DNA of 64,000 nucleotides from Catajapyx aquilonaris. Its lineage: Eukaryota. The position numbers and the translations under genes were made by a program. A model generated the notes under the pieces. The model was not told the origin of the DNA. It saw only the letters and a list, made by a program, of their open reading frames with translations, and did not search any database. The stretch covers positions 1 through 64,000 of the forward strand of contig KZ538147.1 of the NCBI GenBank assembly GCA_000934665.2, read 5' to 3'. Shown in pieces: positions 17,818 to 40,994 of the stretch; positions within the stretch are counted from its first letter, which is position 1, and every line of letters starts with the position of its first letter.

Positions 17818-19019
17818 GCCTGTGCCTTTTTCCTCCTTTTGCAGCAGCAGCAGCCAGCCAGCCTCACTCCGCCCCAGGGATGGAAAAGGCGGGACACACA
17901 CACACGCACGTGTCTGATTGACCCACTTGGCTTACACTCCCGGGTTCAACCCCAGTCTAGTGCAGTACCCAGCCCGGATCGGGTCTGCCGGTACCACCAC
18001 CATCCCCGGTCGCGGAAATTACTCTGAGCATGTATGTCTCTTCGTAATGACTATTCCCTCATCCGCCTGCAACTGAATGAGATTCGCGCAATTTACGACA
18101 GAGGGCGGGGCGATGCAGGACTGCGTTCGTATCGCTGCACTGACACGTTCGTATCGCTGCCTTGCACCCGCTTTATTCAAATTTTAAGCAATGTTCGAAA
18201 AATGATGGCAAAAAATATACAAAGTTCACCAGCCATAGTGGCGCAGAAGGTAGCGCAAATTTCTAGGGATCTTGTGGAGTTACGTGTTGACAGTTGGCAG
18301 TCTGTCCAAAGCAGATGCAGCGTGAACTGCGTGTTAAAGTATTGTGTGGCGGATACAATGGGCAGAGCCAAGTGTTTGCACAATATGGCACGTGATTCAA
18401 CGCTGGTTCCTTTGTTGTGGGGATTAAGTCGACAAATTCTGGTGTGGTATACAAAATGTCAGATTGCGATGCATACTACAGGTGCATGCTGCTGTCATGT
18501 AGCTGACTTGCATCTGCCTTGACATGGGCTGCTATGCGTATTAGATAACTCACTTTAGAATTTTTTTGCATTTACGATGTTTTCCTCAGATGTGCCACAT
18601 TTCTTTGCTTTTTCCTATATTTATCAGATTTATAGTGTCCATGATTGAGGACTGCTTGGAAACATCAAACTTTATACCCTCTTTATACCATTTCCAATAA
18701 TTACCACACACATGGCTGTACAGTATTATCTCTGCAGGTAAACAGTGTAACTCTCACACCTCTCACATGACAAAATGAAGTTATATCATAAAACCAGATA
18801 CACATACTATCCACTACATCTCATGGGACAGTACTCGACATGAAACACTTGCGTAGAGCATCCTTAATATTGAAACTTAATCCAGCACCTTGTTAACCCG
18901 AAATAAGCAAACGCAATGTAAACATAACACTAGCCTGTCAGCCATAACAATAGTCAATGATGCTCCAGTGTCCTGGGACTCGGCCAAAGTTCCAGTGGTG
19001 CTCCAAGGTATACCTGGTT

Positions 19020-19307
19020 AGGGCGGCATAGTGGTCTAGCGGTTACGCCGCTGGCCAGCCAAGCGGGAGGCCGGGGTTCAAATCCCTTCCCCGTCACCTC
19101 TGCTTGGACGGGTCTTTTTCCGCTTTTCACCTGACATGCCGGGGCAGAATTGCACTTCCTACTCTGCCCAGGGCCAGGAGAAAAGACCTGTTGTATTTCA
19201 CAAGTCAGAAATTACTAAAAATTACAGCGCCCTCCCTAGGGAACCACCCCCTTCCCCCCTAAGAGAGCCACTGGCTCTATCACGGGGTAAAAAAAAAAGA
19301 AGAAAAA
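19020..19307 (+). mobile_element. tRNA-derived SINE
   Basis: Pol III A-box-like TAGTGGTCTAGCGG and B-box GGTTCAAATCC, A-rich tail, and a 15-bp target-site duplication AAGGTATACCTGGTT at 19005-19019 and 19308-19322. Confidence 0.88.
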
Positions 19308-19413
19308 AAGGTATACCTGGTTGGCACTCCAAAGTATTCTGCTGTGTCAATGATCTGAGACATCCCACTAGCGTGTCCCATTGTTATTCTAACTACAGCC
19401 AGTCACTGACTTA

Positions 19414-20320
19414 CGAGGGCTGGTCAAAAAAATACCACACTTTTTAAATAGCGCCTCAACTGGCACAAACAGCGTATTGTGGCTACTGACAGCACCTAGC
19501 AAAATGTCTTGACAACAAACTGCCACTTGCCACCTTCCGCTATGACCATTGCTCATCCAGATACATCCACTTAAGTGAGCACTTGCACAAACTGTTCATT
19601 GGATTAGCGACAAGTGAAAATGAGAGAGCTTGAAAAACAATGTGTTTGTGTAAAAGTTCGCTGCAAAATTGGTAAAAATTTTACAGACATTTCAATTGCT
19701 TTATCAAGCATACTTGGGAAGGGTCTTCATGACCAAAAGAGGCACAGATGAGTCAGTCAAAAGTCAAAGTGATGTTGGTTGTGTTTTTGGACTGGAAAGG
19801 CATTTTCCATTATGAATTTGGACCATGTTGTCAGATTGGTAGACAAACAGTTGTAATACCGGAATGTTTTAGTGCGTTTGAGGCATGCTGTGACCAGGAA
19901 AGGCCTAAATTGTGGGAAAGCCAGACTTGGATGTTGTGCCATGGCAAATTAGCTGGCTCACACATCACTCCTGGCCATCAGTTATCTGGCAAAACATCAC
20001 ACATCCTTTGTGCCAATCTACCCTATTCTCTGGACTTGGCCCCTGCAAACTTTTTCCTATTTTCGACACTTAAAACCAATTTGAAATTACGTCTTTTCCG
20101 AACCATAGCATAGAGGCGATTCAGGACAATGCAATAAGAGCACTGCATGCAATCACAGAAAGTGCATTCCAGGAAGCATTCCAACAATGGAAAAAAAAAC
20201 CTGAAACCATCTATCGCCAGTAAAAGGAACTAGTTTGAAGGGGACAGTGCTTAAAATTTTGCGAATTGAGCAATCGAGTCTGTATCAAAAAAAGTTTGGT
20301 ATTTTTTTGAACACCCCTCA
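19414..20320 (+). mobile_element. Degenerate, internally deleted mariner (Tc1/mariner) element
   Basis: Imperfect TIRs CGAGGGCTGGTCAAAAAAATACC / GGTATTTTTTTGAACACCCCTCA with flanking TA; transposase remnant 19748-20113 with KVMLVVFLDWKGIFHYEF and PYSLDLAPANFFLF (decayed YSPDLAPxD). Confidence 0.9.
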
Positions 20321-21924
20321 TACGTCAGTGGATCATCTTACAACATTACAAGCAAGTTGGATGTTACATATTCTAGGAACCTGATTTTATTTATTACGCA
20401 GTATGCTGGCATGTACATTAAACACTGATACTCGAGTTGCTGCATATTCAACTGAGTTTGTCCTAAGCAGGAATGGTTTCCCTGTGAAGCCCAACGTATA
20501 CCAACTTGTGAGGAATGAGTTTAGGTGAATAGGCCTGAGTTGCCATATTATCCTGAAACTCTACATGTTATCTTGCAATTGCCCTAATTTTAAGTTACCA
20601 GTTTGTGACAGATTTTCTACACTTGACATTTTTAAATTATATGAGTCCATTGGAGCTACACATGCTGTGGACTGACTGTAGGCCTGAGGTTCTCAACCTT
20701 TGCCACTTGTCAGCTATGTTCTGACTGCACAAATTGTGCAGAACTGCACGCTACAGTAAGCCCTGAGAAGAAGTGCTTACCTAATCAGTGCCACTTTTGT
20801 GCATGTTTTGAGTCACATAATTTTTTGATTCATTTTTGGCTTTTACTCAAGATTATAAGAATCATTACACCTCTGGAATGAGTAAGAATAAAATCGTATA
20901 CGCAGATGACAATACAGTACACTGAAGGAAATATGCAACTCGAATGAATCCATGTTGATGGTTTAGTGTCAGTCACAGTCATACTATAATGTGGCCATCA
21001 ATCCAGTCGTTTTGCATCCAACTTGCACCCAACTGTAACTCCAGGTACCAGTTTAGGAGACATTGAAAAACTCAAAAGTGTCACTATTTATCAGTTATTA
21101 TTATTTCACCAGAGGCCGATTACAAGTCAGTCATCCTATTGATACGAATATCCGAAACAGAGTTTTTAAACAGTATTATCGATATTACTCTTATCATTAC
21201 ATTTCTTTATGTAATTCATAATGTATTTATCTTTTATATTATTTTTTTCAGTTGTTTTAAGTTTAACTGTTCAACAGTGCAGCGGTGGCGGCAGCAGCAG
21301 CGAGTTGCAGATACAATGGAGTGGCAAATGGAAGGAGGACAGTGTAGGTTGATGGGAAAAACATGACTTGAACATCCAAGACACATCTCTCAGACACACA
21401 CACACACTCATGTGCTCTATTTGGTGAACTATACAGTGGGGAGATTAAAACATATGTGGTGGTAAGGCAGCGCCCCCTCACGGACACTTTGGTGGAGAAT
21501 AGAAGGCGTATCTCCATTGGGCTCTGCCTTACTACCATTAACTCTTTTCCATCTCATTTTCCGCACACCTCCCCACATCCCCTACCCCTTCGTCATTGTA
21601 TGCACTCACATGCAGCCATTCTAGCGCCAACATTTACATATATACTTTACATATTATGATCAACTGAATGGCTTCTCACACATGCTGCCTTTACCTCCAC
21701 TCTCTCCCATCACATGCACACATATTCACACTCACATATACACAGGTTTGCTATCTGGTCCCAGCGCAACTCTCTCTCCAGGTCTTTTCCTTTCCTCCTC
21801 ATTCCCTCTTTATCCTTCCTTTTTGCAATTCCAACAAAGCAAATAAGAAAAACATGTGGGACACTCAGGATAAGGAAGTGGGAAGGGATGGAGTGGTAGG
21901 CAAGTAGGATAGGGTGGCCGCCTC

Positions 21925-24900
21925 TTAAGGTGATGGTGATGGTGTCGTCGCTGTTGATGAATCGTCAGAGCTTCCCGCAGTCACCCATACTAAAAGTCAA
22001 CAAATAAAAAAACATAATAAAATATTCTCGAACTTAGGCACTACAACTTAAAAGTAACTTATAACACTACAGAAATTTGAAAAAAATCTGGAAAACAGAG
22101 GAGTAAGGATTGCATAAGGATGAAGTGATATACAAAACTGCTGAAAATTGTTACAAAATAGTAAAGTAATTCCAGTTACTGGCTGTAGTAACTATGGAAA
22201 AAGTAACGCTGGAAAAAACATTGCTTTTGATACACACTGGATGTGCATATGAGAATGTGGCCCAAGCCCCAAACACATGTGCGCTTCATGTCCTTCAAAT
22301 TTACTCTGCCTCTACACACACAAAACTAGTTCTAAACCACGTGTGCATGTGGTGCCAACTAGGCTACTCTCTGCATATTATATACATTCAACTTTTCCCT
22401 GCCCAAAACTGAACCAGGACCCCAACAATAACGACATGTTAATTCGCTTAAAAAATTGGACTGGAAATAATGAAGTGACTATGCACACAACACTATGCTT
22501 GAACAAGTAACGTTAGAATTCTGGGCAATAAGATTTAAACTGGTTTTATCTTGAAAACTGGGATGCAAAACAGAACTACGTCACTATTTGACAAACACGA
22601 TGACCATAAAACGTGAATTGCTAGATCTTGAATCAGCATTGTAGCAAGCAGCTTCCTCCTAATTTTAAAAATGCGACTAGGTTTAGGGTGAGTGGTTATG
22701 AAGTATTGTCATTTGTGAGGTTCTGCAAAAAGCAGTGCAGTGGCAAAGTTTAACCTCTATTCAGCGCGCTCGCTCACACTCACAAGCACTTAGTGTCCAC
22801 ACATGCCTAATGCTCTTTCCCTATCACGTCAAAACTAAATTGGTGTGGATACTACCTCATGTGGGGCTTGGGCCATGCTCTTAGAAATGAATCGATGACG
22901 GGGAGGGCAGGTGGAAAAAAAGGAGTAGGAGTGCTTGCTGGGGTCAGCAGAATTGTCGTTGATTTCACGTTAACATGCACACATGTACACACACCCAACT
23001 TTGCACATGTGATGCACCCTCAAAAAGTTGAGAAAAGAAATGTAGGAGAAATTATAAGAATGACACAGGCAGTTAGACGAGGGCAGCTGATTGAAGCCCA
23101 ACCACATGTATAAGTGAGGACCAGGCTATTAAGGTAGGGGGGACACAAACACACATTCATACACACACACAGCTCAGGTCAAGCCAGGTATTAAAAGGCC
23201 TTGGTCACTGCAGAGGTCACTGGACCAAACCCCAACAGTGTAAGAAAGCCTTCCCGTTCTTCCATCTTCTCTGTTCCTTCCTCCACCAAATCTTCTGCGG
23301 TCTTCTGTTTGTTACATGCACACCAGAAGGCTTAGAGGTGGTGGTGGGGACCGAGGGGGTAGTCATAGTGTGATATGCATGTGAATGTGTGCACAGGTAT
23401 GGTGTTACATGAGGGAGGGAGTTAAGCGATGGCGGAGTTAGGCATGAGGCCACACGGGAGGAGAAGGCCACCGTCGGGCTCAATATTCGGGGCTTCTCCT
23501 TCCTTAGCCTCTGCCATGACACCTTCATCGGGTTTATTGGAAGATGAGGACTCCAAGGACAGGAAATGAGGAGAGTAGGGCAGAACCTATACCATTCGTC
23601 GTGTGTGGGTGTGTGGTTGGATCAGGTTGGAGGTGGGGGTGTGAAAGGGGAGACGCTTTAGCTCGCCACCCACGCTGTGAGAAAAGGTCTTCGTTAGTAA
23701 TTCCCTCTTTAAGGAAGAAAACATCCTCTTTCTCCTCATAAATCTACAGAGCAGACACCAAGAAATTTGAGGCTCACATTACTGCACAACTCTTCAAAAC
23801 TACTCATGCTCAAGAAGGTTCATGAAAATGTACCATACCTGCAGACCACTCCCAACTCTTTTCAAGCCCTCTGTACTCCACACCAATCCATGCCAGGAAA
23901 TCCCATACAGGTTAATTTACCAATTTTTACATTCAACTTATGAGTGACTTATGACATAATCCCTTGCCAAGTAGTCAGATCACTTTAAAACACTTGGATG
24001 AAAGTTCTGATACAACTCCAAGTAATTCAATTTCTCAAATATTCACTAAAATTGTGTTTTTTGTCCTTCAATCTGGATCAAACTCACCATAGTGCAAGAT
24101 GCACTAACAACTTCATTGATGAAAAATGAACCAATTGTGCAATGCCAAGATATGTTAACACTAGGTACCGTGTAATTCATGCTGGTGATTTAAATAGATG
24201 CAATGAAATTTGACATTCCTCTAACCATACAGCCTCTGACAGTGTAATTGTTAATACCAGGCATAAAGGAGAAAGGCCAACTAAGCATGCAAAAGCACGA
24301 CCAATAAATAACTGACAAACGAAGCCATGGAGCAATTGAGTTAGTAAGGCTGACCTGCACAGAAGGAGAGCGAGCCAGGGAGCGCAGGGGAAGGGGGGGC
24401 ACAGGGCACACACAAGGCCTTTACATGTAGGTCACTGAGAATTAGAGAGAAACAGAAAGGAAAATAATGACAGAGGTAGGCAGGTAGACTCAGTGAGGCA
24501 GAGACATGACTCATTTTAGTAGTAATGTTAGTTCAAAATCACCAAAAATTTGCATTACAAAATCATCCCTGTAAGACGGCAACTTACTCCTGACATTTGG
24601 CCCTATATACCGTACCTAGAGGTACCGGAATCTCTCTCTTGCATCTTGTAAGTTATTAACATAATTACCTTTATTACCCTGCAGCCATGCATAGCATCTT
24701 CTCCTATTGCCAACTGCAGTAACTCCCCTGATTCAATAGCAATTTTCAATGGTGTTCAAATTACACTCCAGGGATACTTAACTGTGCAACAACAAAATTG
24801 GAAAGCATCATGTTGCACTTTCAGCTATATTAAAGGTTAATTCATTGATTCTGAGAGATTGTCAGCCAGTTCCATTCTGGAACTGAGTGGGTGTTGTTTA

Positions 24901-27900
24901 GCTTTCCAAGCCTTTCAGCCTACACCCACACCATATGCACTGAACCCCATGTTCCTTGTTATAGTAGAGCAGCCACTGTAATTAATTATATCTGCCCACT
25001 ACTTCCTACCTGGCAGAGACAACAACTTCCCATCCTTAATTAATTAGGGGAGAAGAGTACAGTTAAAGACAAGTAGGAAATGGTAGGCAGGAATCAAGAA
25101 AGACACTGACCTACGATGATGACCACTATGACAAGTCCGATGGCCCCCATAATCAACATCATCTTCATGTTTTTCCACCAGAACTTCCTCTTCAGTTTGC
25201 CTGCCTGCTGCTCAAACTGCGATGCTCCCTGTTGCAAAGCATCTGGGTGTGGAAAAAGTAATTAGCCTTACATTTGTCCCATTACACAACACTCATCAAA
25301 TTTGAAATAAAAGGACTTCACTACAGCCTAACATATTAGTGGCAGATTATTCCCGGCGCCCATTCGTCACGTTAACTTGCAAATAAAAAGTTCTAAGCAC
25401 CTACATGCCACTTTTATGTTGAAATTCACCAGTTTGCAATGAATTAAATAATTTTCTTGAACTGTTATTCATGTCATCTCAAAGACAGTCACAAGTCACT
25501 AATCACAGGCTATTCATGCAAGCTTTTTATGAAATCAGTGCATATTTAGTGACTCATCCCTGCATAGAATAAGACTGCAGTAATTTGGTTACAAAGTTCT
25601 AATCAGACAAGAAATTCTCCCTGATGCCAGATATGCTTCAATGCACAGGTAGAGTGAGTCATACTTGTGATCTAATGGCAAGTGTACCCAGTATGCACTG
25701 CATGATTCATACATCTTGTGATTGGTCTGGTTCAAATTCAACATGAAAAGGTGGCCTTTATTCTATTTCATTCCACATGCAAATACTTGGCACAGATTTT
25801 TCAGATTGTTACACAACCTGGCAACTCATGCAGGCCAGTCATTTTTGTTTGCACTCCTGACAGCTCATACGTGGTGAAACACCAAAGGCTTTCTCATGGC
25901 ACTGTTATCACTTCACTGATAAAAAGTTCTATCGTTCTATGAGGCCAACAATCAGAAAAACTGTGCTGTTATCACCAGACCTGCGCCACTAAGGATCAAG
26001 ATGGACACCCATGCACTGAATTGTGAATTCACTGTGTCCAGAAGCAAAGAGTAATAGCCAAAGAAATGAAGTGAAAAATTATGCGAAAAAAGGTTCTCTA
26101 CAAATGAATATTGCATTGAAACATGAAAATTTGGGACTCTCTAACCTGCTCGGTCATCCAGTTCGGACAACTTCTGATCACGCTCCAGCACTTTCTCTAC
26201 ATTAGTCCGCATGATGTCCACCACCTGGGTGAGGCCCAGGCAGAAGGAGCAGATGAAAGGCAGCATGGGAAGGGAAAGGGTGAAAGAGAGAAAACAGGCA
26301 AGGTATGCCATCAGTCAATGAAACAAGTTGCCCCGTTTCAATAGGAGGGAGACACAATTCATTAACTTGGGCGCCGGGCAGGTAATTACAGTACCTAGAA
26401 TGCTGCTCTAATGCTGAGCGTATGTCTCAAGGGGTAAGAGTTAGTAGATTATAGCACTCGTGCACATTCCCCAAAACAGTTTCAGATGCAGGACCTCACC
26501 TGCCCTGTCGTCCAGCTCTGAAAGCTTCTGGTCCCTCTCTAGCACCTTCTCCACGTTCACCCTCATGATGCCCACAACCTAATGTGTGTTACATAGTATA
26601 CATTTGTGTGCATCAGTCAATTAAATCAATCTAAGTGTGTCATGAACAATAAACTTAACAATATCATTGATACTGAGGCACACAAAACTGAACAAAAGTA
26701 ATAAATCAATGTTCTGGCTAAATCATCACTTCTTGTCTGACTTCCACAGCACCTGCAATTATCATCATTGTGAATCTGAAACCTTCTGATGTGACAATTA
26801 TGCAATTATAATAAAGTGCAAGTTCATATTTGAGTATGCACAAGTGCTTCCTCAAGATTGCACTACATGCACAGGGAAGGTTTCAAATCCTCAAGATTCA
26901 AGAAAGTTATTACACATCACAGTTGAGCAATGTGAACTAGATATGAAATCAGTGATTCACTTCCATTTTGACCATTATTGACTGTTCCACTTCTACTTTA
27001 ACGTGATCAACATACAGCAATAATTACTACACAAATCATATATTATCCACATGAGGTCACAACTATTCCGTAAACATAGTGACTTCACTTTTGTTACAAT
27101 GCCTCTGAAAATAGCAATGTAACAACCAGTAATGATATCAAGCATTTAAAAAATACAAGTAATACTTTCTAAAGTGCCATCAGCCCTTGGAAGACAATTA
27201 CAACACAAAGTTCTTGATGAAGAAGGTGCACTTATTCAATTATTTCTCTCAGCAGGAGTCACAGATGGGTCAAGGTCATGTGCATTCATGTCAACGAACT
27301 GACCTCATCGACCTGTGCCTGTGTCTGCTGCAGCCTCTTCTGCGCTGCCATCTGCTGAGGAGTGCGAGGACCTCCAACGATGGCCCCTTCCCCATCTGCC
27401 GCACCCCCCTCCGCTCCGGGTGCCGCAGCTGGCGGGCCACCCGCCGCTCCACCTTCCGTTGACCTGACAAGAAAAACAAATGTAAGCTACAGGCATCCTA
27501 ATGAAAGAACAACAATGTATAATACACCCTACATTGCAATTTTTTCAGCAATGACAAACAAAAGTATATCACTAAAGATTCACACACAAATCCTGCCACA
27601 GAGAATACAAGTTCCTTTAGGCAAGTAATCTAGGGTACAATACCACAAACCTTCCTGCCCACATGATGTCTGCCCACTTGCCCCTGCAGATCTGCTGTCC
27701 TTTTAATCGTTGGACAGCAGGGTCATATGTTATCTCAATTTACAGCTTGATTAATGGGAAACGTCACTACATTATCAAAACTTTCCGCTGACTTACACCT
27801 CTACCAAGGGCAACTCCTCCCACTCCTGTCATTGCTATCTTGTAAAATTGTTGCTTTTTTAGACAAAATGCTTGTGCGTGTTTGCATTATTGCAATTGAA

Positions 27901-30900
27901 CTACACTGGCCCAAGGGTTACCATTAACATGGAATTTATCTACAACTGGTCATTGCATATAAGATTATATGTGTTCATATATCATAACTCTAGGGTACAT
28001 TGGCTCTTTAAAAAAAAAAACATTGCAATGGCCAAGAGGCGGAAACAATCATTGTCAGTAAGTTAACAAATTGTAAAACAGTTCTCATGTCATATTTTCA
28101 CTGAAACTGAAAAGATGGGCTTTTGAATGTTTAGCCTATATGCAAATATGTGAACTATTCATTATAAACCACCAAACCATGTCTTCATGACGCTCCTACC
28201 CATGCTCCCAACAGCAATGCAATCATTCAATACATTCCTGGCTTCTTTTGACCCTATCATATTCCTGAGATCTTTACAACTGTGTCCAGTCTAGGTGATT
28301 CCACTAATCTGAGAGATAACTACAACACCTTGGTGATTACACGTACTAAATCAGTCATTCAAGTCTTCTCAAAGCAGAAAATTGAGGTGTGGAAAGCAAC
28401 AATGTGGTCATCTTGCCCATGAAATTGTGGATTTGCACATCACTGACCCATTATGCTGGGTACACTAGGCACTGTAATGTCTGAAAAGTTGCACAAATAG
28501 GGGGCATGCACACCAATTCATCACCATTGCCTAGTTTGCTCCTGATCTTTCAGTTCAAATAGCAGAGACAGAGGGCAGAGCAGACCAGTGGGAGAAAGAC
28601 AATCCTTCCTGACGTTCCAACTACACTTGTGCCCACTGCCTCCAGGATTTGAACTTATATCAAAGGATGTCCTGAACTGGGCAACAGTGACACAACTGCA
28701 ATGGGCAGGTGTGCAGGCATCTCACTCCTGCAACCTTTTAGCCATACATCACAGCTTCAATGGCTAGTTTGCATGCAACCCATGACAGTATGAGCTGAAG
28801 ATAAAGATTGTATTTTTGGATCAGTCTGTAGCCTACAAGGACCCTAGTGGAACTGCACTTTGTGAATTACTGACCTAAATCTGCCAATAATTAAGTGGCT
28901 GTGGCCTACTTGCCAATGGATGATTACGATCACACGACCATTGTAGGATTACTATAGCTACTTCTCAAGAGGCCTCTACTTTCATTAACCCATTTTTCTC
29001 TTAATTTCACTTATGAACTCTTTAATTGATTAAGTCTCAGCACCAATTGTGCAGGGAACAATACACATACAGATAAATAGGTCACTACATGTCATCAGGA
29101 AGAATATTACGCCACTCCATTGTCAAGTCATCATAACTTGTTTTATATTTTCAAAACCACACCCAAGTGGCATAAACGTACGTGATTAACTTCACAGCAT
29201 TGAGAATGCCATCATCCGTGTTAACTCGCCTCAAGCTGCACATGTGTGACACATGCAGTTAACCAGGGTTTATTAACACACCACTGCATAAATTAAACGG
29301 ATGAACAAGAGGTCAAGGAACTAACTCTCTAAATCATTCTGTTCAAAAGCAACTGATGTTTCTTTTAAATTCCTCATTTCTGTTTCGTCACCACAAATAT
29401 CATGAAGCCATATGGATGCTGAGGGCAAATTAATAATTTGGTTGTCCTGTGATGGGTCTAAAGCACCTTTTTCAGGTAGCGACCCCCTTTTATGATAGTC
29501 AAGTAATCTGCAACCACCACGCTCCCGAGTATTAGTATAACATTATTGTAGTGCAGACATATTCAAACATATTTTTAAAACCTTCGTGGTGAAATTTCCT
29601 ATAAAATTCCAAGTAAAAATAACCACAGCCACTGTGCGACCCCCCAGAAAAGGCTTGGTGACCCACAGGTTGGGAACCACTGGTCTAAAGAGTCTTTTTA
29701 AATGACTCAATCACTGGATTATTAATGGAGGAAAAACCCAGGTAAACAAGGTGAGTAGTCCTGGCAATGTGCAGTCATTATGTGTATGGCCCTTAGAGTA
29801 CCCAGGATTCTATCATGTGAAAAATCAATGTGTATCAATGTAAACAAAACTCATTGCCCTGGCATCTTTTCTTTTCATTCGCAGCAAATTTCAGCTAAGA
29901 TATTTCACCATAATACACTGTGTCTGCATGTTTATTATACCACAAATTTTTCACAACTACAGAAAAATTATTTCATGCTACTCGATGATGCGGTGTCTAC
30001 TGCACAGGGTTCTTCTAAATTACAATCTTCCAACATTGTGTCCCCACTTCATATGGCAGGCCTGACCCCAACACCTTATCTTAATCCCACCCACCACCCA
30101 ACCCAAACACAACAACCTAGAACAAAGGTCTTGCAAAGATGCACAAAGCTTCTGCACCTTATGCCTATAACAAGTTATCACATTTGAGTTGGTGTATTGG
30201 TGGAATTTAGATAAGGGGGTGGATCAGGGCTGCCACATGAGCGAGGGATCCAGGTGTAGAAGGTAGATAATTTACGCAAAACACCTGGCAACGCAATGCT
30301 AACCATTTATAAAAAATTGGAATAACTTATTTTGTAACAGCAGAATGCAATATTCAGTATGGATCGTGGTATGGAAAAAATGGGCAGTTCTTGAAAGCTA
30401 CCCATAAACTTAAATATGATTTTACGTGAGGGTAGGGAACACTTAGCAACTTGCAGCACAAACCTCCAAACTTGTCCCAAGACACTTACACAGCTCTGAC
30501 AGCTAAAGCCCCCAACCCAATGTGCATGTTTGCACTGTACCTGATGGATTCCCTATAATGCATTCCGAACTTGACTGGAACCTTCTATCGACTGAACTTC
30601 CCTGGTCATTGACTTTACACACATTTAAAACTAGCAATCACATATCAGGAACATTTAACCTCTGATTTAATCTCTGATATTGTTCACTTAAGGGGGTTAG
30701 GGACAGTTGTAACTCATGTTCATACAAGTGGACCTTAGTAAGCTAAGGTCACAAAGGCTGGGTTGCATGAATGATTGTAAACCTGGAACAAATAATTAAT
30801 CTTGCACCTGTTCTAGGGTTACTTTGTTTATTCTACCAGCCCAAAGTATGAAAATATGGCATTCATCACCTTGTTCCCAAATTACAAACCTTTCTTATTG

Positions 30901-32091
30901 CTCATTTCTTCATTGGAAGCAACAGGCCTCTTACGCACATTTGAACATATGGGGCATGCTGTCACAATTTATTATAATCGACCTATATTATGAGTAATGA
31001 ACTAATTAGATTTAATTCAGTTAACGAATACATGGACAAAAGAAAATGAAAGGAATTTTTCCCACAGTTGGCTGCAGTGCCAAATACCACTGCTGTCCAC
31101 TAATTTTTGTGCAAATCTTGAATAGTAATTATACTCGCAGCTTTAAAACTAGGATACTTTCTTGCATGACTCACATTTTGGAGTTGCCTAGAGCCCCTTT
31201 TAGAAGCCTTTTTAAAAAACACTCAGAACCTGCCTGAGAAATAAATTATTCACTTCACCTCCCCTTTGGTAGTGTCATTTTATTTACGCTGCTCTGACAA
31301 TACGAAAATGTTCTGGAACAGGCCCACTATCTGCTTGCCAAGGACAACATTGCCAAATTATGCCTAAATTATAGATTCAACCACAGTATGGCACTGATAC
31401 CCCAATGGGCAACATGGCCACTCCACAATGCCAGTCAATGAAATTGCTTGTGAAATTAGTGCCAGGCATGCAGGGTGTCCTAATTGAAATGTCAGCAGCA
31501 GTCAGAAATCTGCAGCACCAACCTGCTAACATTTAAGATGCTACTTTTAATAGTTTTTGTTAGAATTAGCTGCTTATCCACTTCTTATGTGCTAAGCTAG
31601 GTAGAATCATTGATCCACGCTCTGAATAGCATTGAACTTCCCTCTGGGAATTGTATGTCAGTACAATTGGCATTCCATGTCAATAATACAACCTACTTTT
31701 GCGGACCTGACCAGTTAATTTTTTTGACAGCCTCTTCAATGAACTGCTTAAAATAAGCATACTAGTCCCAAATAATTGTTGACCCTACTGACACATCAAT
31801 TTGATTTCAAATGTCAGAAATTCAGCCTCCTCTGGAACAAAATAATATTTTTAAAAATCCATTGCAGCTGATTATTTCACTCCCCATCTTGTCACTCACT
31901 GTACCTACTAATTGGCGTTCCAGCCCTAATTAGCTCCAATTTAGTGGTTCCACCCCAATTACCCCAATTCCGGGAGTCCCGATTTCTGCCCGCCATCCAC
32001 CAACGGGCCGAGTGCCAACAAGGCACTGACACATCCCCATGACTGTTTATTTCCATATAAAATCCCACCCCCCCATGTAAAAGACTCACAT
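21925..32091 (-). CDS. Syb: Synaptobrevin/VAMP2 R-SNARE with mutually exclusive exons
   Basis: Split start codon AT(32091-32090)|G; exon 27463-27304 (..[12 protein letters not shown]); exon 3a 26578-26500 or 3b 26224-26146; exon 25242-25111 ([25 protein letters not shown] plus TM helix); best terminal exon 21989-21925 ([21 protein letters not shown]). Confidence 0.93.
29460..29683. mobile_element. Possible degenerate hAT-type MITE
   Basis: Ends in CAGGTTGGGAACCACTG, a terminus typical of Charlie-like hAT MITEs, with repeated internal GCGACCCC; the left terminus is not recognisable. Confidence 0.4.
30050..30240. repeat. Degenerate fold-back inverted repeat (old MITE-like)
   Basis: CATATGGCAGGCCTGACCCC..CCTTATCTTAATCCCACC is imperfectly complementary to GGTGGAATTTAGATAAGGGG..GATCAGGGCTGCCACATG. 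Confidence 0.5.
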
Positions 32092-32761
32092 GACGAGGCT
32101 GTGTTTGTTGCTCTTCCTCTTCTTCTTCTACTACTCTCCCGTCAGCGGAGTGCTTCCTGGATCAAGTCGTCGTGGTTGGTTCCACCTCCAACCCAGCGCC
32201 GAGACCCCCGTCCGTCCCCGTCTGTCACACACACTGCAGTATCCCAACCGGCCGGGTTCGTCCTTCAGTTCCTGCCCTTCGCTTCCTTTCCCCCCCGGCC
32301 TATCTGGACGTCACGGCGGGGCAGGCGAGGCTGTGCGTATCTCCCTGCCTCGGGCTAAAAGCGAGGCTGGTGGCGGTAGGAACACTGCTGGCTCGGGACA
32401 GTCCCCCAGCTCGACCTGCTGCAATGGCGACCTCGGCCCTTTTCCCCTCTGATGTCATCCATCCGGGAACTTTTCGGGTGGTGGGAGGGGGAGGCGGGCG
32501 GGCGGGTTGGCGGGTGGGTGGGTTGGAGGTGGCGGGGGCGGAGTGGGCGGCACGCACACGCATCCACATTAAACGCACTTTTAATTAACCAAAATGTTAA
32601 TTAATTACACGCAACTAATTAGAGCCGCATGTTAGCTGAATAGAGGGCAGCACGTGCTTCCGGTCTGTCCTTGTCGTCACTTCCGGTCTGGTGCAGGCCT
32701 ATCCTCGTGTCATTTGCGGTTCGTGTCGGGTCCGAGTTCGTCGTGTTGTTCGAGTACAGAG
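32092..32761. promoter_or_regulatory. Divergent Syb / RpL22 promoter region
   Basis: Head-to-head start codons about 670 bp apart in a CpG-rich island; two CTTCCGG (ETS-like) motifs at about 32657 and 32680 upstream of the RpL22 ATG. Confidence 0.55.
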
Positions 32762-33202
32762 ATGCCACCGGTAAGTACGGCTCATTACAAGGGCATACAC
32801 TAATTGCGATGGGCTGTTTTAAGTATTTGGGATATCGGATGGACTTGAGCAGGGTCAGATTTGATCGGATTGGAGGGTTGACCATATTTTTTTCGGGGTG
32901 TAGGCAAAGGAGAAGAAGCCGGCCCCTGCTGCGGGAGGTGCGGCCAAACCAGCCCCTGCTGCAGGAGGTGCAGCCAAGCCGGCCCCTGCTGCGGGAGGTG
33001 CAGCCAAGCCGGCCCCTGCTGCAGGAGGTGCAGCCAAGCCAGCCCCCGCTGCGGGAGGTGCCAAGCCGGCCCCACAGCAACAGCAGCAGAAGAAGGCTCC
33101 GGCCCAACCTGCACAGCAACAACCAAAGAAGGCTGCTTCGCAACCGGCGCAACAACAACAACAGCAGTCGCAGCAGCCCAAGAAGGCGCAGTCTCAGCCA
33201 GG

Positions 33203-33237
<35 letters not shown>

Positions 33238-35259
33238 AGAAGGCAGCGGCTCAGCCTGCACAACAACAGCAGCAACAGCCCAAGAAGGCTGCATCACAGC
33301 CTGCCCAACAGCAGCAGAAAAAGGAGAAGGCCCCCGCACAGCCTGGCCAGCAGCAACAACAACAGCAGCAGAAGAAGGAGAAGGCCCCCGCACAGCCTGG
33401 CCAGCAGCAACAGCAGCAGAAGAAAGAGAAGGCCCCCGCACAGCCTGGCCAGCAGCAACAGCAGCAGAAGAAAGAGAAGGCCCCTGCACAGCCTGGCCAG
33501 CAGCAGCAACAACAGCAGAAGAAAGAGAAGGGCCCCGCACAGCCTGGCCAGCAGCAGCAACAACAGCAGAAGAAGGAAAAGGGTCCCGCACAGCCTGGCC
33601 AGCAGCAACAACAGCAGAAGAAAGAGAAGGCCCCTGCACAGCAGCAGCAGCAGCCGAAGAAGGAAAAGGGTCAACAGCCAGCCCAGCAGCAGCAACAGCA
33701 GCAGAAGAAGGCCCCTGCCCAACAGCCTGCCCAGAAGAAGGATGAGCCCAAGAAGGCTGCCTCGGCCACCACTCCCAAGCAGCAGCAACAGCAGCAGCAG
33801 CCAGCCAAGGCAAAGGGAGGAGCCAAGCCTCAGGAGGCTGCCAAGCAGCAGCAACAACAGCAGGGCAAGGCCAAGCCTGCCCAGCAAACCCAGCAGCCAG
33901 CAAAGAAGGAGCAGGCCCCCCCAGCTCAGCAGGCGCAGAAACGGAAGGCAGAAGCACCCAAGAAGGATGCTTCCCAGCCTGCCCCGAAGAAGAAGGCCGA
34001 GGGTGCTCCTGCTGCACAGCAGCAGCAGAAGAAGGGTGATGCCAAGAAGGCCGAGCCAGCCCAGAAGAAGAAGGAAGGTGTCAAACCAGCTCAGCAGCAG
34101 CCAGCCAAAAAGGCTGCATCTGCCCCAGCCACTGCCGCTCCCCAGCAGAAGGCAAAGGCCGTCAAGCGTGAGGCTGGGAAGGACTCTTCTGCACCTCCAG
34201 CCAAGGAAGCCAAGACTGCTCCCAAGGCAGCAGCTAAGCCTGCAGCCAAGCCAGCTGCCAAGCCAGCTGCCAAGCCTGCCGCCAAGCAAGCCGCCAAGCC
34301 TGCCGCTGCCAAGCCCACTGCTGCCAAGCCTGCTGCTGCTAAACCTGCAGCCAAAACGGCAGCCAAGGATCCTAAGGCCGCAGGGAAACCTGCTGTCCCC
34401 AAGGTCGCCGTCCCAGTGAAGAAGACAGCCGCTGCCAAGGCTGCTGCCAAGCTGTCCAAGGCGTCCAAGCCCACCCAGAAGAAGGCGACAGCTGCTGCCA
34501 ATGCTGCGGCCGCTGCTGCTGCTGCTGCGCAAAGGGCAAGGCAGCTGAGCAGGCAGAAACTGAAGGGGAAGGGTCAGCGTGGACGGAAGGTGACAGTCAA
34601 GTATGGGATCGACTGCGCGCATCCGGTTGAAGATGGCATTATGAATTCAGCTGATTTTGTGAGTGCAGCCAGCAGTGACCCCTGGGACCAGATGCCATCT
34701 TGGACATTTTCGGTCCTAGGGCTCTCTTCCCTAGCGACCCAGGGACCTCTTCCCTGCTTGCCTGCCTGGCACCTTGGTGCTGGGCGGCATGGCAGTGGCT
34801 AGGGCTACCTTCCCTAGCCCCCATACTGCCACCAAATCATGGTCACGTGGCATGTTGACTCATTTGTTCCTTTGTCATTTCAGGAGAAGTACCTTCGTGA
34901 GCGTATCAAGGTCAATGGGAAGCTGAGCAACTTCGGAAGTGTTGTCTCACTTGAGAGGAATAAGAACAAGATCAGCCTCACCGCTGACATCCACTTCTCA
35001 AAAAGGTGATTTTTAAATGTTGAATAGCAGAGTCGTCATCATTTGTGGCCATATAATTTTTCAATTTGTGTTAGATTCTCATGACCTCAACTAATGGTGA
35101 AACTTGTTCTTTCCCAGGTACCTCAAGTACCTGACAAAGAAGTACCTGAAGAAGAACAACCTTCGGGACTGGCTCCGAGTGGTTGCCCCTAACAAGGAGA
35201 ACTACGAGCTTAGGTACTTCCAGATCAACCAGGAAGAAGAGGATGACGATAAGGACTAA
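32762..35259 (+). CDS. RpL22: 60S ribosomal protein L22 (eL22) with very long Ala/Lys/Pro/Gln-rich N-terminal extension (~675 aa total)
   Basis: Exons 32762-32770 (MPP), 32904-34658, 34884-35005, 35118-35259. Core motifs [60 protein letters not shown] and an acidic tail. Confidence 0.95.
32916..34380 (+). repeat. Coding tandem repeats in the RpL22 extension
   Basis: About five 30-nt units encoding [10 protein letters not shown], about seven 45-51-nt units encoding [22 protein letters not shown] runs and AAKP repeats. Confidence 0.9.
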
Positions 35260-37953: not shown

Positions 37954-40388
37954 TCAAACATATCGGAACTGCTTGAGACAGTCATTCCCAAGGTCCGCCA
38001 CCAACAGGTGGCCCCCATCTGGCAATGGCGCAACGCCTGATGGACGCTTCAGCTTGGCGCCAAATGAATCGATGGTGCAGAGCAGGTGGCCATCGTTTAT
38101 GCGGAACACTTGCACAAAACTGCGACCCTTCTCACTCCGTGATGCAAGGACACGTCCACAGCTGTCCACGCAGATTCCACCATAGCGACCTTTACCTGAT
38201 TGGCATTAAAAATAAATTAATCGCAATTCCCCAGTAAGGTCTATTTGGCCTAAGTGCTTATTTCGCATAGGACTTGCGCATGCAAACATTCTCTGCTTCG
38301 TGAAACATTAATTACAGTATTTGTAACGGCTTTATGGGTACTGTCATTTTTGCTACATTTACTTGAGCATTTTCTCAATTCTCCAGAGTAATTAGCATTA
38401 TTTCATAACCAATTTGGTACCACAATAATTACAGTTTTACTACCACACTTTTCAAGTATGATTTGAACAATCTCAGGTTATCATCATTATGCAGTTATGA
38501 AATGCATACCTTTCCCTTCTGCATTGATCTCACGCAGAAACTTTCCAGCAGATGAGAAGACCACAATAGTTGAGTCGGCCACCAGGATCTCACCAGTTGA
38601 TGAAACAGCCACGGCTGCCACCCCAACCTTCCTGTTTGCAACTTTTCTCACCATCTGACCTGTGGCAACGTCCATCACAAAGACTGCACCAGCCGCATGG
38701 TCACCAACGGCAATGCATCCTTCACCCGCAGCAGCCAGGGACACTGGCTCCAGAAATTCAGAGCATGTGAAGCTTGAACGGGTCTCGCCTGTGCCTGGAT
38801 TCAACACGGAAACAGTCTTTGTCCTCCAGTTGACGACAGCCAGCTCTTCAGTTGGTAGCCACGCAAGTCCAGTGCCAGATCTGCCTTCCAAGGCACTGCT
38901 GTCTAACTGCCGCAGTGGCTCCAGATGAACATCGAGTACTTGTATGCGTGAGTTACCAGTATCCAGCACATATATCTCAGTACGTGATGTTGCAATGGCT
39001 ACAGGTTGAACCAATTCCCGCTTTCCAGATCCCCTTGAGCCATATATAGCCACTGGTGGATGTTGAACAGATGCTTCAATCACCAATGGTGATCCTCGAA
39101 CTGGTCTACCAAAGAGGGTCACTTGAAGTTGCGACACGCCCGGTGGAGGTCGGAATCGCAATATGTATGTTCCATCATCTTCGTCCTCAATTGCAACTGG
39201 CATGGTGGGACCTTCGTCAGGAACCAGGCTAGCCATCAGAGGATCACCGCCGTTGGTACGCCTTCTCCCATTTAAATCCACAGCAGTGAAAATGGCACTT
39301 GTCTCCAGTCCAGCCACTAATGTGGAATCAGGTGTCTCGTGGGGGATTTCCAGCGAACATAATCCAGGAAGAGTGCTGGATGACCGTACACGCCCAAGGG
39401 ATGCAGCAGCCTCTGCCAGCTGCCCCCGTGCTGGCCCATGGTCAGATTCAAACAGCAAAAAAGCATTTTCACGTGGCTCACCAAGTGTTGACACTGAATC
39501 CAATTTGGCCCCCAATTCAGCTATTCGTCTTGATATGTGTCGAACTTCAACTTGCCAGTGCAGACCTTCAACCTCTGCCTGAACCTTGCTACGTTCAGCT
39601 GAAATCAACTCAAGTTGTTCTGCCAGGACTTTCTGCTTTGCTTGTGCCACACTACGTACTTCCTCAAGAACAGCTTCGCGGCGTTTCTCAAGCACCTCAA
39701 CCGCCTCTTGGAAACAGCGATTGACATCTGCCAATCCAGATTCGACAGATAATTCTAACGCTGCCAATTCAGCCTCAACCCTTCCAGATGCTTCATCCAA
39801 TTTTCCAACACACTCATTAGCCTTGTACAGTAGGATTTCTGACATGCGCTTAATTGCAATTGAAAATGGTATCACAGTATGTTCTGAAGCTGGCAGCTGT
39901 GAAGACGAGGATGAGGATGATGATGTGTCTGGATCCTTCACATTGGTCGACGACCCAGACGCACCACCTGTCTGATGGGAGCCTCCAACGCACAGGCTGC
40001 AGAACACGGTGTCGCACGTCTCGCAAAACAACAGCTCCTGAGCAATATGCGTTGCACACTTGGGGATCACGTGACGGCGTTGACGAGACATGAGATCCAG
40101 AAGTTGGTTGACCAAGAAAGATGGCGGCAAGGCGGAGACTCCACCACGGGGTATCCCAATAAGCTCACGGCATATCGGACACCTGAAGGTGCCATCGTCC
40201 CTGGTCTGGGAAGATGCGATGCGTCCCAGGCACTGCAGGCACACGGTGTGGGAACAGGGCAGCAGCTTCGGGGTGTGCTCGCCCCCATCATACATGCACA
40301 GGCACGTCCCACACGTCAGGAAGCTCTCATTGAAGTCCTCATAGTTGATGGAAACAGTTTCCACCAATGTAGACGTCATGTTGATCAT
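37954..40388 (-). CDS. TRIM2/3-like RING - B-box - coiled coil - filamin - NHL protein
   Basis: RING (CGTC...PCSHTVC..C...CPIC), B-box (CATH..ELLFCETCDTVFCSLC), filamin repeat (DGTY...GSP) and NHL repeats (VLDTGNSRIQ, VADLGNDC). Exons 40388-38510 and 38195-37954; the true start or upstream exons are uncertain. Confidence 0.9.
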
Positions 40389-40646
40389 CTTCGATCCCAG
40401 ACGAGCCCTGTGAAAACGAGACGATTTTCTTGGACTCCAGCCACCCCAAATTTTATTTATACTACATCCTGGTCCCCTGCCAAAATATGCAATCAAGACA
40501 CTAGACACACACATAACTGTCAAAAAGGTGTAAACACACTGACAAGTGCAAGCATCGAATGCACTAGTTGCCGCAGAATGAAAACATGTGTCACTAAAAG
40601 TGACAAATGGCAATGCATATTGTTGAGCCTTGGTAACAACTCCATT

Positions 40647-40994
40647 AATTAATTCGAGGGGTTAATCACTTGACGCTATAGTGTAAGATGACCTTCACAG
40701 ACTTCAGTCGCGTTAAGGGTTTATTATGAAGGAGCCAAAGCAACTATTGCTATCTGGCTATGAGAAGACACAAAGGTGGGGTAGATACTTGGGTAGATAG
40801 AAATGGAAACGAAGAGGAGGAAAGATTGGTATCTCTCTTAGTACAGCATGTTTCCTATCCAACTTGGGAGGTCATGCCAGTAGACGAAGCTACCACCAGC
40901 ATAGCTCTCTGGGTCACGGGAGAACACAAAAGTCAGTCGGACTTCAGTCTAAACGAAAAGAACTTCATAAGTGACTAACCCCCTCGAATTAATT
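40647..40994. mobile_element. MITE with ~25-bp TIRs
   Basis: AATTAATTCGAGGGGTTAATCACTT (40647-40671) versus AAGTGACTAACCCCCTCGAATTAATT (40969-40994); no recognisable protein inside. Confidence 0.7.

Follow-up and report, generated by a model that had tools for sequence, protein, structure and literature searches.

Two mutually exclusive 79-nt exons in a synaptobrevin gene of Catajapyx aquilonaris and their counterparts in other arthropods

Can a single synaptobrevin gene deliver two versions of one SNARE motif by splicing, and is such an arrangement a local accident or an old one? The question is raised by a stretch of 64,000 nucleotides (nt) from Catajapyx aquilonaris (contig KZ538147.1, positions 1 to 64,000), here called the window. 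The window contains a synaptobrevin/VAMP gene on the minus strand, between about 32.1 kilobases (kb) and 21 kb, with two tandem copies of its third exon, 3a and 3b. Synaptobrevin, the vesicle SNARE of neurotransmitter release, is among the most studied proteins in cell biology. The favored reading, to which a probability of roughly 0.8 is given, is that 3a and 3b form a mutually exclusive pair that arose by an ancient tandem duplication within a single brevin-type R-SNARE gene of this non-insect pancrustacean. How the gene is built, that both forms are spliced, that the frame constrains the choice and that the pair is conserved across Arthropoda are matters of observation and are described in turn. 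All positions are those of the window, and residue numbers are those of VAMP2.

The initial annotation, made from the sequence alone, had proposed two tandem 79-nt exons with identical phases at 26578-26500 and 26224-26146. Coordinates and translations proved exact, and the phase of both exons is 0 at the start and 1 at the end. The exons that make up the SNARE motif are as follows.

Exon 2: 27304..27463, minus strand, 160 nt; third base of the start codon and 53 codons, STEGG...QQTQAQVDE.
Exon 3a: 26500..26578, minus strand, 79 nt; 26 residues with G44/V48; joints 27304/26578 and 26500/25242.
Exon 3b: 26146..26224, minus strand, 79 nt; 26 residues with D44/T48; joints 27304/26224 and 26146/25242.
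Exon 4: 25111..25242, minus strand, 132 nt; finishes the D codon and adds 43 residues; joints at 25242 and 25111.

The splicing evidence consists of the contigs of one public sequencing run (X1), whose kind is unrecorded and which has no tissue label; the run search, made with 10 kb of the locus, listed no run recorded as RNA. The contigs were placed on positions 18001-32000, where matches of up to 1.8 kb in length have 0-1 mismatches. Joints of both paths, 2-3a-4 and 2-3b-4, were found at the exact exon borders given above, and all four have GT..AG ends on the minus strand. Spliced contigs contain both exons, and their depths are similar in order. Neither a 3a-3b joint nor a 2-4 joint is listed among the contig joints of run X1, which cannot exclude rare forms. 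Mutually exclusive splicing, as proposed in the initial annotation, is supported by these four joints.

The use of one exon or the other is enforced at the protein level because 79 nt cannot be divided evenly by three. When the splice is computed with both exons, the protein stops after 87 residues, and without either exon it stops after 70; the frame shift that had been claimed for both cases was thereby confirmed. In the proposed mechanism each mature mRNA would carry exactly one 79-nt exon, as inclusion of both or of neither would shift the frame and end the protein early. Only the one-exon forms would encode a membrane-anchored SNARE, with a length of 145 or 128 amino acids (aa) that is set by the 3' exon, which would be chosen independently. 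Wrongly spliced forms would presumably be cleared by nonsense-mediated decay.

The two exons were compared with each other. Exon 3a has the flanks cattag/GTTGTG and GGGCAG/gtgagg, and exon 3b has cacccag/GTGGTG and GAGCAG/gttaga (slashes mark the exon borders). They differ at 20 of 79 bases and at two of 26 residues (G/D and V/T), which corresponds to 75% identity in DNA and 92% in protein. Thirteen codons carry synonymous differences only, and two carry residue-changing ones. The proportion of synonymous differences (pS) is 0.82, i.e., saturated. Purifying selection on both exons, another claim of the initial annotation, is borne out and is strong, as 24 of the 26 residues are the same while the synonymous sites are saturated. 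Among the matches listed by a tblastn search with either exon against the whole window are these two copies (E 2e-13 and 7e-12) and no third one, the next match having an E value of 0.5. In the window the copies are separated by 275 nt of intron, unique in sequence.

Each copy is recognizable as synaptobrevin on its own. Against the Pfam family Synaptobrevin (PF00957), with a gathering cutoff of 26.4 bits, exon 3a scores 28.9 bits and exon 3b 30.5 bits, both over profile positions 15-40. Exon 4 scores 56.2 bits over positions 42-84, and 3a, 3b and exon 4 jointly span positions 15-84 of 89. Exon 2 holds the N-terminal region and the beginning of the SNARE motif, and matches cockroach VAMP2 with 80% identity across 91% of its length. 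Exon 4 holds the C-terminal half of the motif and the transmembrane helix; it ends in a 17-residue segment that is aligned by homology to the VAMP2 anchor, so that a C-terminal transmembrane anchor stands right after the SNARE motif. Both alternative exons read VLERDQKL, and the R of this string is aligned with R56 of VAMP2 through the alignment of P0104, a homologue from a Daphnia cluster, to the structure 1sfc. R56 is taken here to be the zero (central) layer of the SNARE bundle.

Could one of the two exons be a decaying or rarely used relic, in a gene that effectively yields one protein? The contigs give no ratios, and the 3b exon of insect Syb-type genes diverges fast, e.g., to VVEIMQIN at the metagenome locus L032; both points would suit such a reading. 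In the window, however, both exons are intact, have canonical splice sites, score above the Pfam cutoff and occur in spliced contigs at depths of similar order, and 24 of 26 residues have been retained despite saturated silent sites. A relic is therefore regarded as very improbable. A recent duplication or an assembly artefact, unrelated to other arthropods, was also considered. No support for it was found. It is refuted by the 25% divergence of the copies in DNA, by the unique 275-nt intron between them, by the independent RNA contigs and by the recurrence of this ordered pair in many further taxa, and its probability is put close to nil.

The splice sites of the two exons differ in strength. 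Exon 3a has a weak polypyrimidine tract and the strong donor gtgagg. Exon 3b has a pyrimidine-rich acceptor and the weak donor gttaga (26145-26140). A GTTA-type donor of 3b (gttaat) is common to the metagenome loci L074, L078 and L079, while the donors of 3a are gtgagg or gtaa. The conserved weak GTTA donor suggests that the use of 3b may be regulated. In the proposed mechanism exon choice would be regulated through this opposition of a weak acceptor and strong donor in 3a to a strong acceptor and weak GTTA donor in 3b, which recurs at three other genomic loci.

Two mechanical explanations of exclusivity were examined. A search for intronic RNA pairing in 2 kb gave 17 short inverted repeats of 11-19 nt, none above chance level. 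Two of these flank 3a (26479-26490 with 26771-26782) and 3b (25352-25362 with 26368-26378), and are at chance level like the rest. Steric hindrance is rejected as the mechanism on account of intron length: the copies lie 275 nt apart here and 451-2897 nt apart in the metagenome loci described below.

Is the pair confined to this species? A protein search with exon 2 gave 163 matches at E <= 0.01 among 1128 candidates, and two Armadillidium gene models with both exons in a row were found among the best 120 of these. A further search, scored on residues 35-74 of P0104, gave 3293 matches among 3324 candidates. At the top of its best 120 stand mis-merged models of three spiders, Orchesella, Ephemera, Frankliniella and Hyalella. 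In all nine mis-merged models (three spiders, Orchesella, Ephemera, Frankliniella, two of Armadillidium, and Hyalella) the order is 3a, then 3b. At least nine public models are affected (P0054, P0092, P0127-P0130, P0132-P0134); they read through the intron or bridge it, which inflates the protein and doubles half of the SNARE motif.

Ticks, Limulus, Tachypleus, Artemia and Neocloeon have RefSeq isoforms that differ solely by exon 3; in Dermacentor silvarum, for instance, these are X1 and X2. The protein clusters of these animals divide as follows.

Ticks (first cluster): 14 members; 5 with 3a, 8 with 3b, 1 with no motif.
Haemaphysalis cluster: 9 members; 2 with 3a, 7 with 3b, 0 with no motif.
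Ixodes cluster: 3 members; 1 with 3a, 2 with 3b, 0 with no motif.
Tachypleus cluster: 6 members; 3 with 3a, 3 with 3b, 0 with no motif.
Limulus cluster: 4 members; 2 with 3a, 2 with 3b, 0 with no motif.
Artemia (seven proteins, two clusters): 7 members; 2 with 3a, 4 with 3b, 1 with no motif.
Neocloeon cluster: 2 members; 1 with 3a, 1 with 3b, 0 with no motif.

A scan of metagenome contigs yielded 380 pattern matches, of which 278 were confirmed and 80 loci were kept. Tandem exon pairs are present at seven of the 80 loci. All 14 exons of these pairs are 79 nt long with AG/GT flanks, and the introns between the copies measure 451-2897 nt. The 3a-then-3b pair has been found in chelicerates (spiders, ticks and horseshoe crabs), crustaceans (brine shrimp, isopods and an amphipod), springtails and insects (mayflies and a thrips). 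Exon 3b of the window shares 80-84% DNA identity with the 3b exons of L074, L078 and L079, versus 75% with its own 3a; 3b being closer to the 3b of other species than to its own 3a, the copies are orthologous by type and have not been homogenised within species. The DNA of 3b is more conserved between species than that of 3a. A recent duplication had been named in the initial annotation as the outcome that would speak against an old switch; the pair is in fact present in chelicerates, crustaceans, springtails and early-branching insects, and an ancient origin is strongly supported by these sequence comparisons.

Two further duplications were noticed in the course of these comparisons. Isoforms of horseshoe crabs and ticks (P0256-P0259, P0273-P0275, P0187/P0175) alternate two transmembrane segments, MIAIMVGIGVV... 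and MWAIIIGI.... This looks like a second, putative alternative exon pair of chelicerates, freely combined with 3a/3b; no second transmembrane exon pair is seen in the window among the tblastn matches listed. In the nematode Ditylenchus destructor, two complete tandem synaptobrevin genes (a G44-type and a D44-type) are fused in one model (P0125, P0126), which by the predicted proteins is a whole-gene rather than an exon duplication.

How does the pair relate to the two synaptobrevin genes of insects? A search with dipteran-type Syb gave 2897 matches among 3160 candidates, and the best 120 contributed 109 new proteins, among which are named synaptobrevins from numerous flies and mosquitoes and from one Drosophila species. 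Of these 109, 102 carry the motif VVGIMRVN, five VVGIMKVN and two VVDIMRVN. Insect proteins of nSyb type (ten clusters, 102 proteins) read VVDIMKTN in 99 cases and VVGIMKTN in one, and two are incomplete. Exon 3b has the insect nSyb motif (D44/T48) except for R in place of K at position 47, as judged from the proteins of these ten clusters. The initial annotation had assigned VVGIMRVN to Syb and VVDIMRTN to nSyb of Drosophila. The first assignment is supported by 102 of the 109 dipteran proteins listed; the second is supported only in part, the motif of the insect nSyb-type proteins being VVDIMKTN in 99 of 102. It had also been suggested that an ancestral splice switch was later split into two genes. 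The dipteran Syb motif, identical to that of 3a, and the 3b-like motif of nSyb speak for this suggestion; the retention of both exons in Syb-type genes and the flipping of residue 44 speak against it. The suggestion is partly supported, a clean split being too simple.

A tree was computed from 40 database proteins, hand-picked from about 500, and the window protein, with exon 3 masked (126 columns, quick search). Support was expressed by the Shimodaira-Hasegawa-like approximate likelihood ratio test (SH-aLRT). All pancrustacean sequences fall into one clade (SH-aLRT 99), with both insect groups inside. The insect nSyb group has a support of 81, and the insect Syb group, which has a misplaced long-branch nematode inside, one of 87. 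The tree would fit a gene duplication internal to Pancrustacea after the exon pair had arisen, without proving it. In Microctonus hyperodae, the locus tags of P0221 (Syb-type) and P0118 (nSyb-type) follow each other on one contig, a hint that tandem gene duplication may have given rise to the insect Syb/nSyb paralogues. The later insect gene duplication may have taken over part of a division of labour that the exon pair would have served before. In the review PMC8377282, Syb is assigned to post-Golgi fusion, with n-Syb assigned to the release of synaptic vesicles.

What could two residues change? Residues 2-96 of P0104 align to residues 2-96 of PDB 1sfc_A, with G44/V48 of P0104 opposite D44/V48 of VAMP2. 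By this alignment exon 3 matches VAMP2 residues 42-67, and the two positions that vary are indeed 44 and 48, as had been noted initially. The predicted proteins of the two forms differ solely at these positions, 44 (G/D) and 48 (V/T). The V1 recognition motif comprises aa 38-47 according to PMC3991612. A reading of G44 as toxin resistance is undercut, since fly Syb is described as the functional tetanus-toxin target in glia in the preprint 10.1101/2020.08.26.268011, and Syb is 3a-type in other Diptera. The isoforms would serve different vesicle classes or cell types, and would do so via the exposed surface and not via the core layers of the bundle. Positions 44 and 48 are presumably the exposed heptad positions f and c, between the core layers 42, 46 and 49. 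Because of this exposure and of the location of the V1 motif, the preferred mechanism is that a changed exposed surface or local helix propensity (G versus D) may tune sorting or the start of SNARE assembly.

A different view accepts the pair as real and old and takes the two proteins to be functionally equivalent. The pair would then be kept as a regulatory device (splice-site strengths, enhancers, unproductive splicing) that controls output by cell type, with G/D and V/T merely tolerated. The complementary splice-site strengths, with the weak GTTA donor of 3b also at L074, L078 and L079, and the better conservation of 3b DNA across species are in keeping with this view. So are several observations that weigh against a functional meaning of the two residues or against the history proposed here. 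Residue 44 toggles in genes of single-exon type: it is G in Cryptotermes nSyb (both of two members) and in an Athalia nSyb isoform, and D in the Syb of two hoverflies. VAMP2 itself is a mixture, D44/V48, and the two residues may matter little. In Daphnia, 3a alone is found, in 11 of 11 cluster members. Overexpressed Syb can substitute for n-Syb in Drosophila, as stated in the review PMC8377282, i.e., Syb can rescue n-Syb in flies.

Other points of the same kind concern the sampling and the tree. The contigs of run X1 record presence only, and give neither ratios nor strand nor the absence of rare forms. No RNA-pairing mechanism for exon selection is supported, because the inverted repeats are short and no better than chance. 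Thirteen of 20 genomic-looking metagenome loci show one copy in their contig stretch, many of these contigs being short. Both exons, with a fast-diverging 3b of the kind cited above for L032, are present in Syb-type genes of Neocloeon, Ephemera and Frankliniella and on four metagenome contigs. In the tree, 18 of the 38 inner branches are unresolved, the crustaceans are not resolved between insect Syb and nSyb, and the topology would also suit an older duplication of the gene with subsequent loss in crustaceans. Against functional equivalence stands the joint retention of G44 with V48 and of D44 with T48 in chelicerates, crustaceans and springtails, despite saturated synonymous sites, which is unexpected under drift. 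Functional equivalence is accordingly judged unlikely.

The mutually exclusive, ancient exon pair remains the favored reading, and a wider scenario can be built on it. In this scenario the splice switch predates the chelicerate-mandibulate split. Exon 3b would direct the protein to vesicles of the regulated, neuronal type and 3a would direct it to constitutive vesicles, through two solvent-exposed residues read by sorting adaptors of the AP180/CALM type. Insects would have replaced the switch by gene duplication, with nSyb keeping only 3b, and Syb keeping 3a while 3b drifted or vanished. The scenario is tentative, and is considered possible rather than probable. If true, it would provide a dated, stepwise case in which, for a core synaptic protein, gene duplication took the place of alternative splicing.

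The remaining exons of the gene were mapped with the same contigs.

Exon 1, 3' end: 32090..32117, minus strand; 5' untranslated region (UTR) and AT of the start codon; the exon runs further upstream.
Exon 1 donor: 32089-32084, minus strand; gtgagt, in the sequence cgtcat/gtgagt.
Exon 5a, alternative: 24355..24434, minus strand, 80 nt; ...VTYM, then a stop four codons in, then 3' UTR; joints 25111/24434 and 24355/23674.
Long 3' exon after exon 5a: 21963..23674, minus strand; untranslated in the exon-5a form; contig of 1821 nt with 0 mismatches.
Exon 5b, alternative terminal: 21161..21989, minus strand; internal acceptor 21989; 21-residue tail, stop and 3' UTR.

The loose end of an RNA contig upstream of exon 2 has a unique window match at 32095-32117. 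The start codon is split by the first intron, AT being the end of exon 1 (32090) and G the start of exon 2 (27463). Exon 5b is supported by the joint 25111/21989 (depth 206) and by an RNA contig over 21161-21992; its acceptor (21989) falls within the long 3' exon. The computed products have 128 aa with exon 5a and 145 aa with exon 5b. The exon 5a tail has four residues, and this form has a spliced 3' UTR intron about 70 nt past the stop. The 21-residue tail of exon 5b is Ser/Thr-rich and is similar to the Daphnia tail VWATSGSS. The choice between 5a and 5b provides alternative 3' ends that may be independent of the choice of exon 3.

Two other features lie upstream of the gene. An intronless open reading frame of 724 codons (38490-40661, minus strand) with RING, B-box, filamin and NHL matches is the upstream neighbour of the synaptobrevin gene and is predicted to encode a TRIM-NHL type protein. 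Immediately upstream of exon 1, at about 32600-34600, lies a 2-kb low-complexity stretch that has several open frames on either strand, those of the plus strand being rich in Q/K/A/P and those of the minus strand rich in L. Repetitive coding sequence or simple sequence is its probable nature.

The literature search found nothing on an arthropod synaptobrevin exon pair, subscription journals and supplements being outside the search. Both forms are already contained in automated RefSeq isoforms of several species, and SNAP-25 exons 5a/5b are a familiar device of this kind. Work on arthropod synapses has treated synaptobrevin as a single protein per gene, as in the crayfish (PMC3991612). That study reports cloning of VAMP with a forward primer on the D-type motif, and a single isoform. 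The single neuronal VAMP isoform of crayfish could not include the 3a form, because the forward primer of the polymerase chain reaction (PCR) encodes the D-type (3b) motif. If the two-residue switch has been kept across Arthropoda, it would offer a natural minimal pair for probing the N-terminal surface of the SNARE motif in sorting and priming, and also a clean case of splicing-based and duplication-based diversification trading places. For annotation, the pair is of value in that at least nine public gene models wrongly fuse both exons. This value is tempered by the presence of both forms in RefSeq, by the familiarity of the device and by the putative nature of the functional difference.

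Among known systems, the closest in kind are exons 5a/5b of vertebrate SNAP-25, also a tandem duplicated, mutually exclusive exon in a neuronal SNARE gene with isoforms that differ by few residues. Replacement of 5b by a second 5a leads to seizures and plasticity defects in mice (PMC2581893). SNAP-25 is a Qbc SNARE of vertebrates, whereas the synaptobrevin pair belongs to an R-SNARE, differs at two residues, is present in all sampled arthropod subphyla and is known from sequence. Syb and n-Syb of Drosophila resemble the two forms in that 3a has the dipteran Syb motif and 3b resembles insect nSyb in D44/T48. They are, however, separate paralogous genes, while here one gene gives both motifs on an identical backbone, and insect nSyb has K47 where 3b has R. 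Vertebrate VAMP1, VAMP2 and VAMP3 are likewise brevin R-SNAREs with a near-identical SNARE motif, but have diversified as whole-gene paralogues; VAMP2 is D44/V48, and VAMP3 of some fish is G44/V48. No exon pair of the 3a/3b kind is present among the vertebrate matches listed. In arthropods, the mutually exclusive exon clusters of Dscam1 and 14-3-3 xi are guided by competing RNA pairing. Like 3a and 3b, they consist of equal-length tandem homologous exons that are used one at a time. Unlike them, the synaptobrevin introns show no convincing docking/selector pairing, and it is the 79-nt frame rule alone that enforces exclusivity at the protein level.

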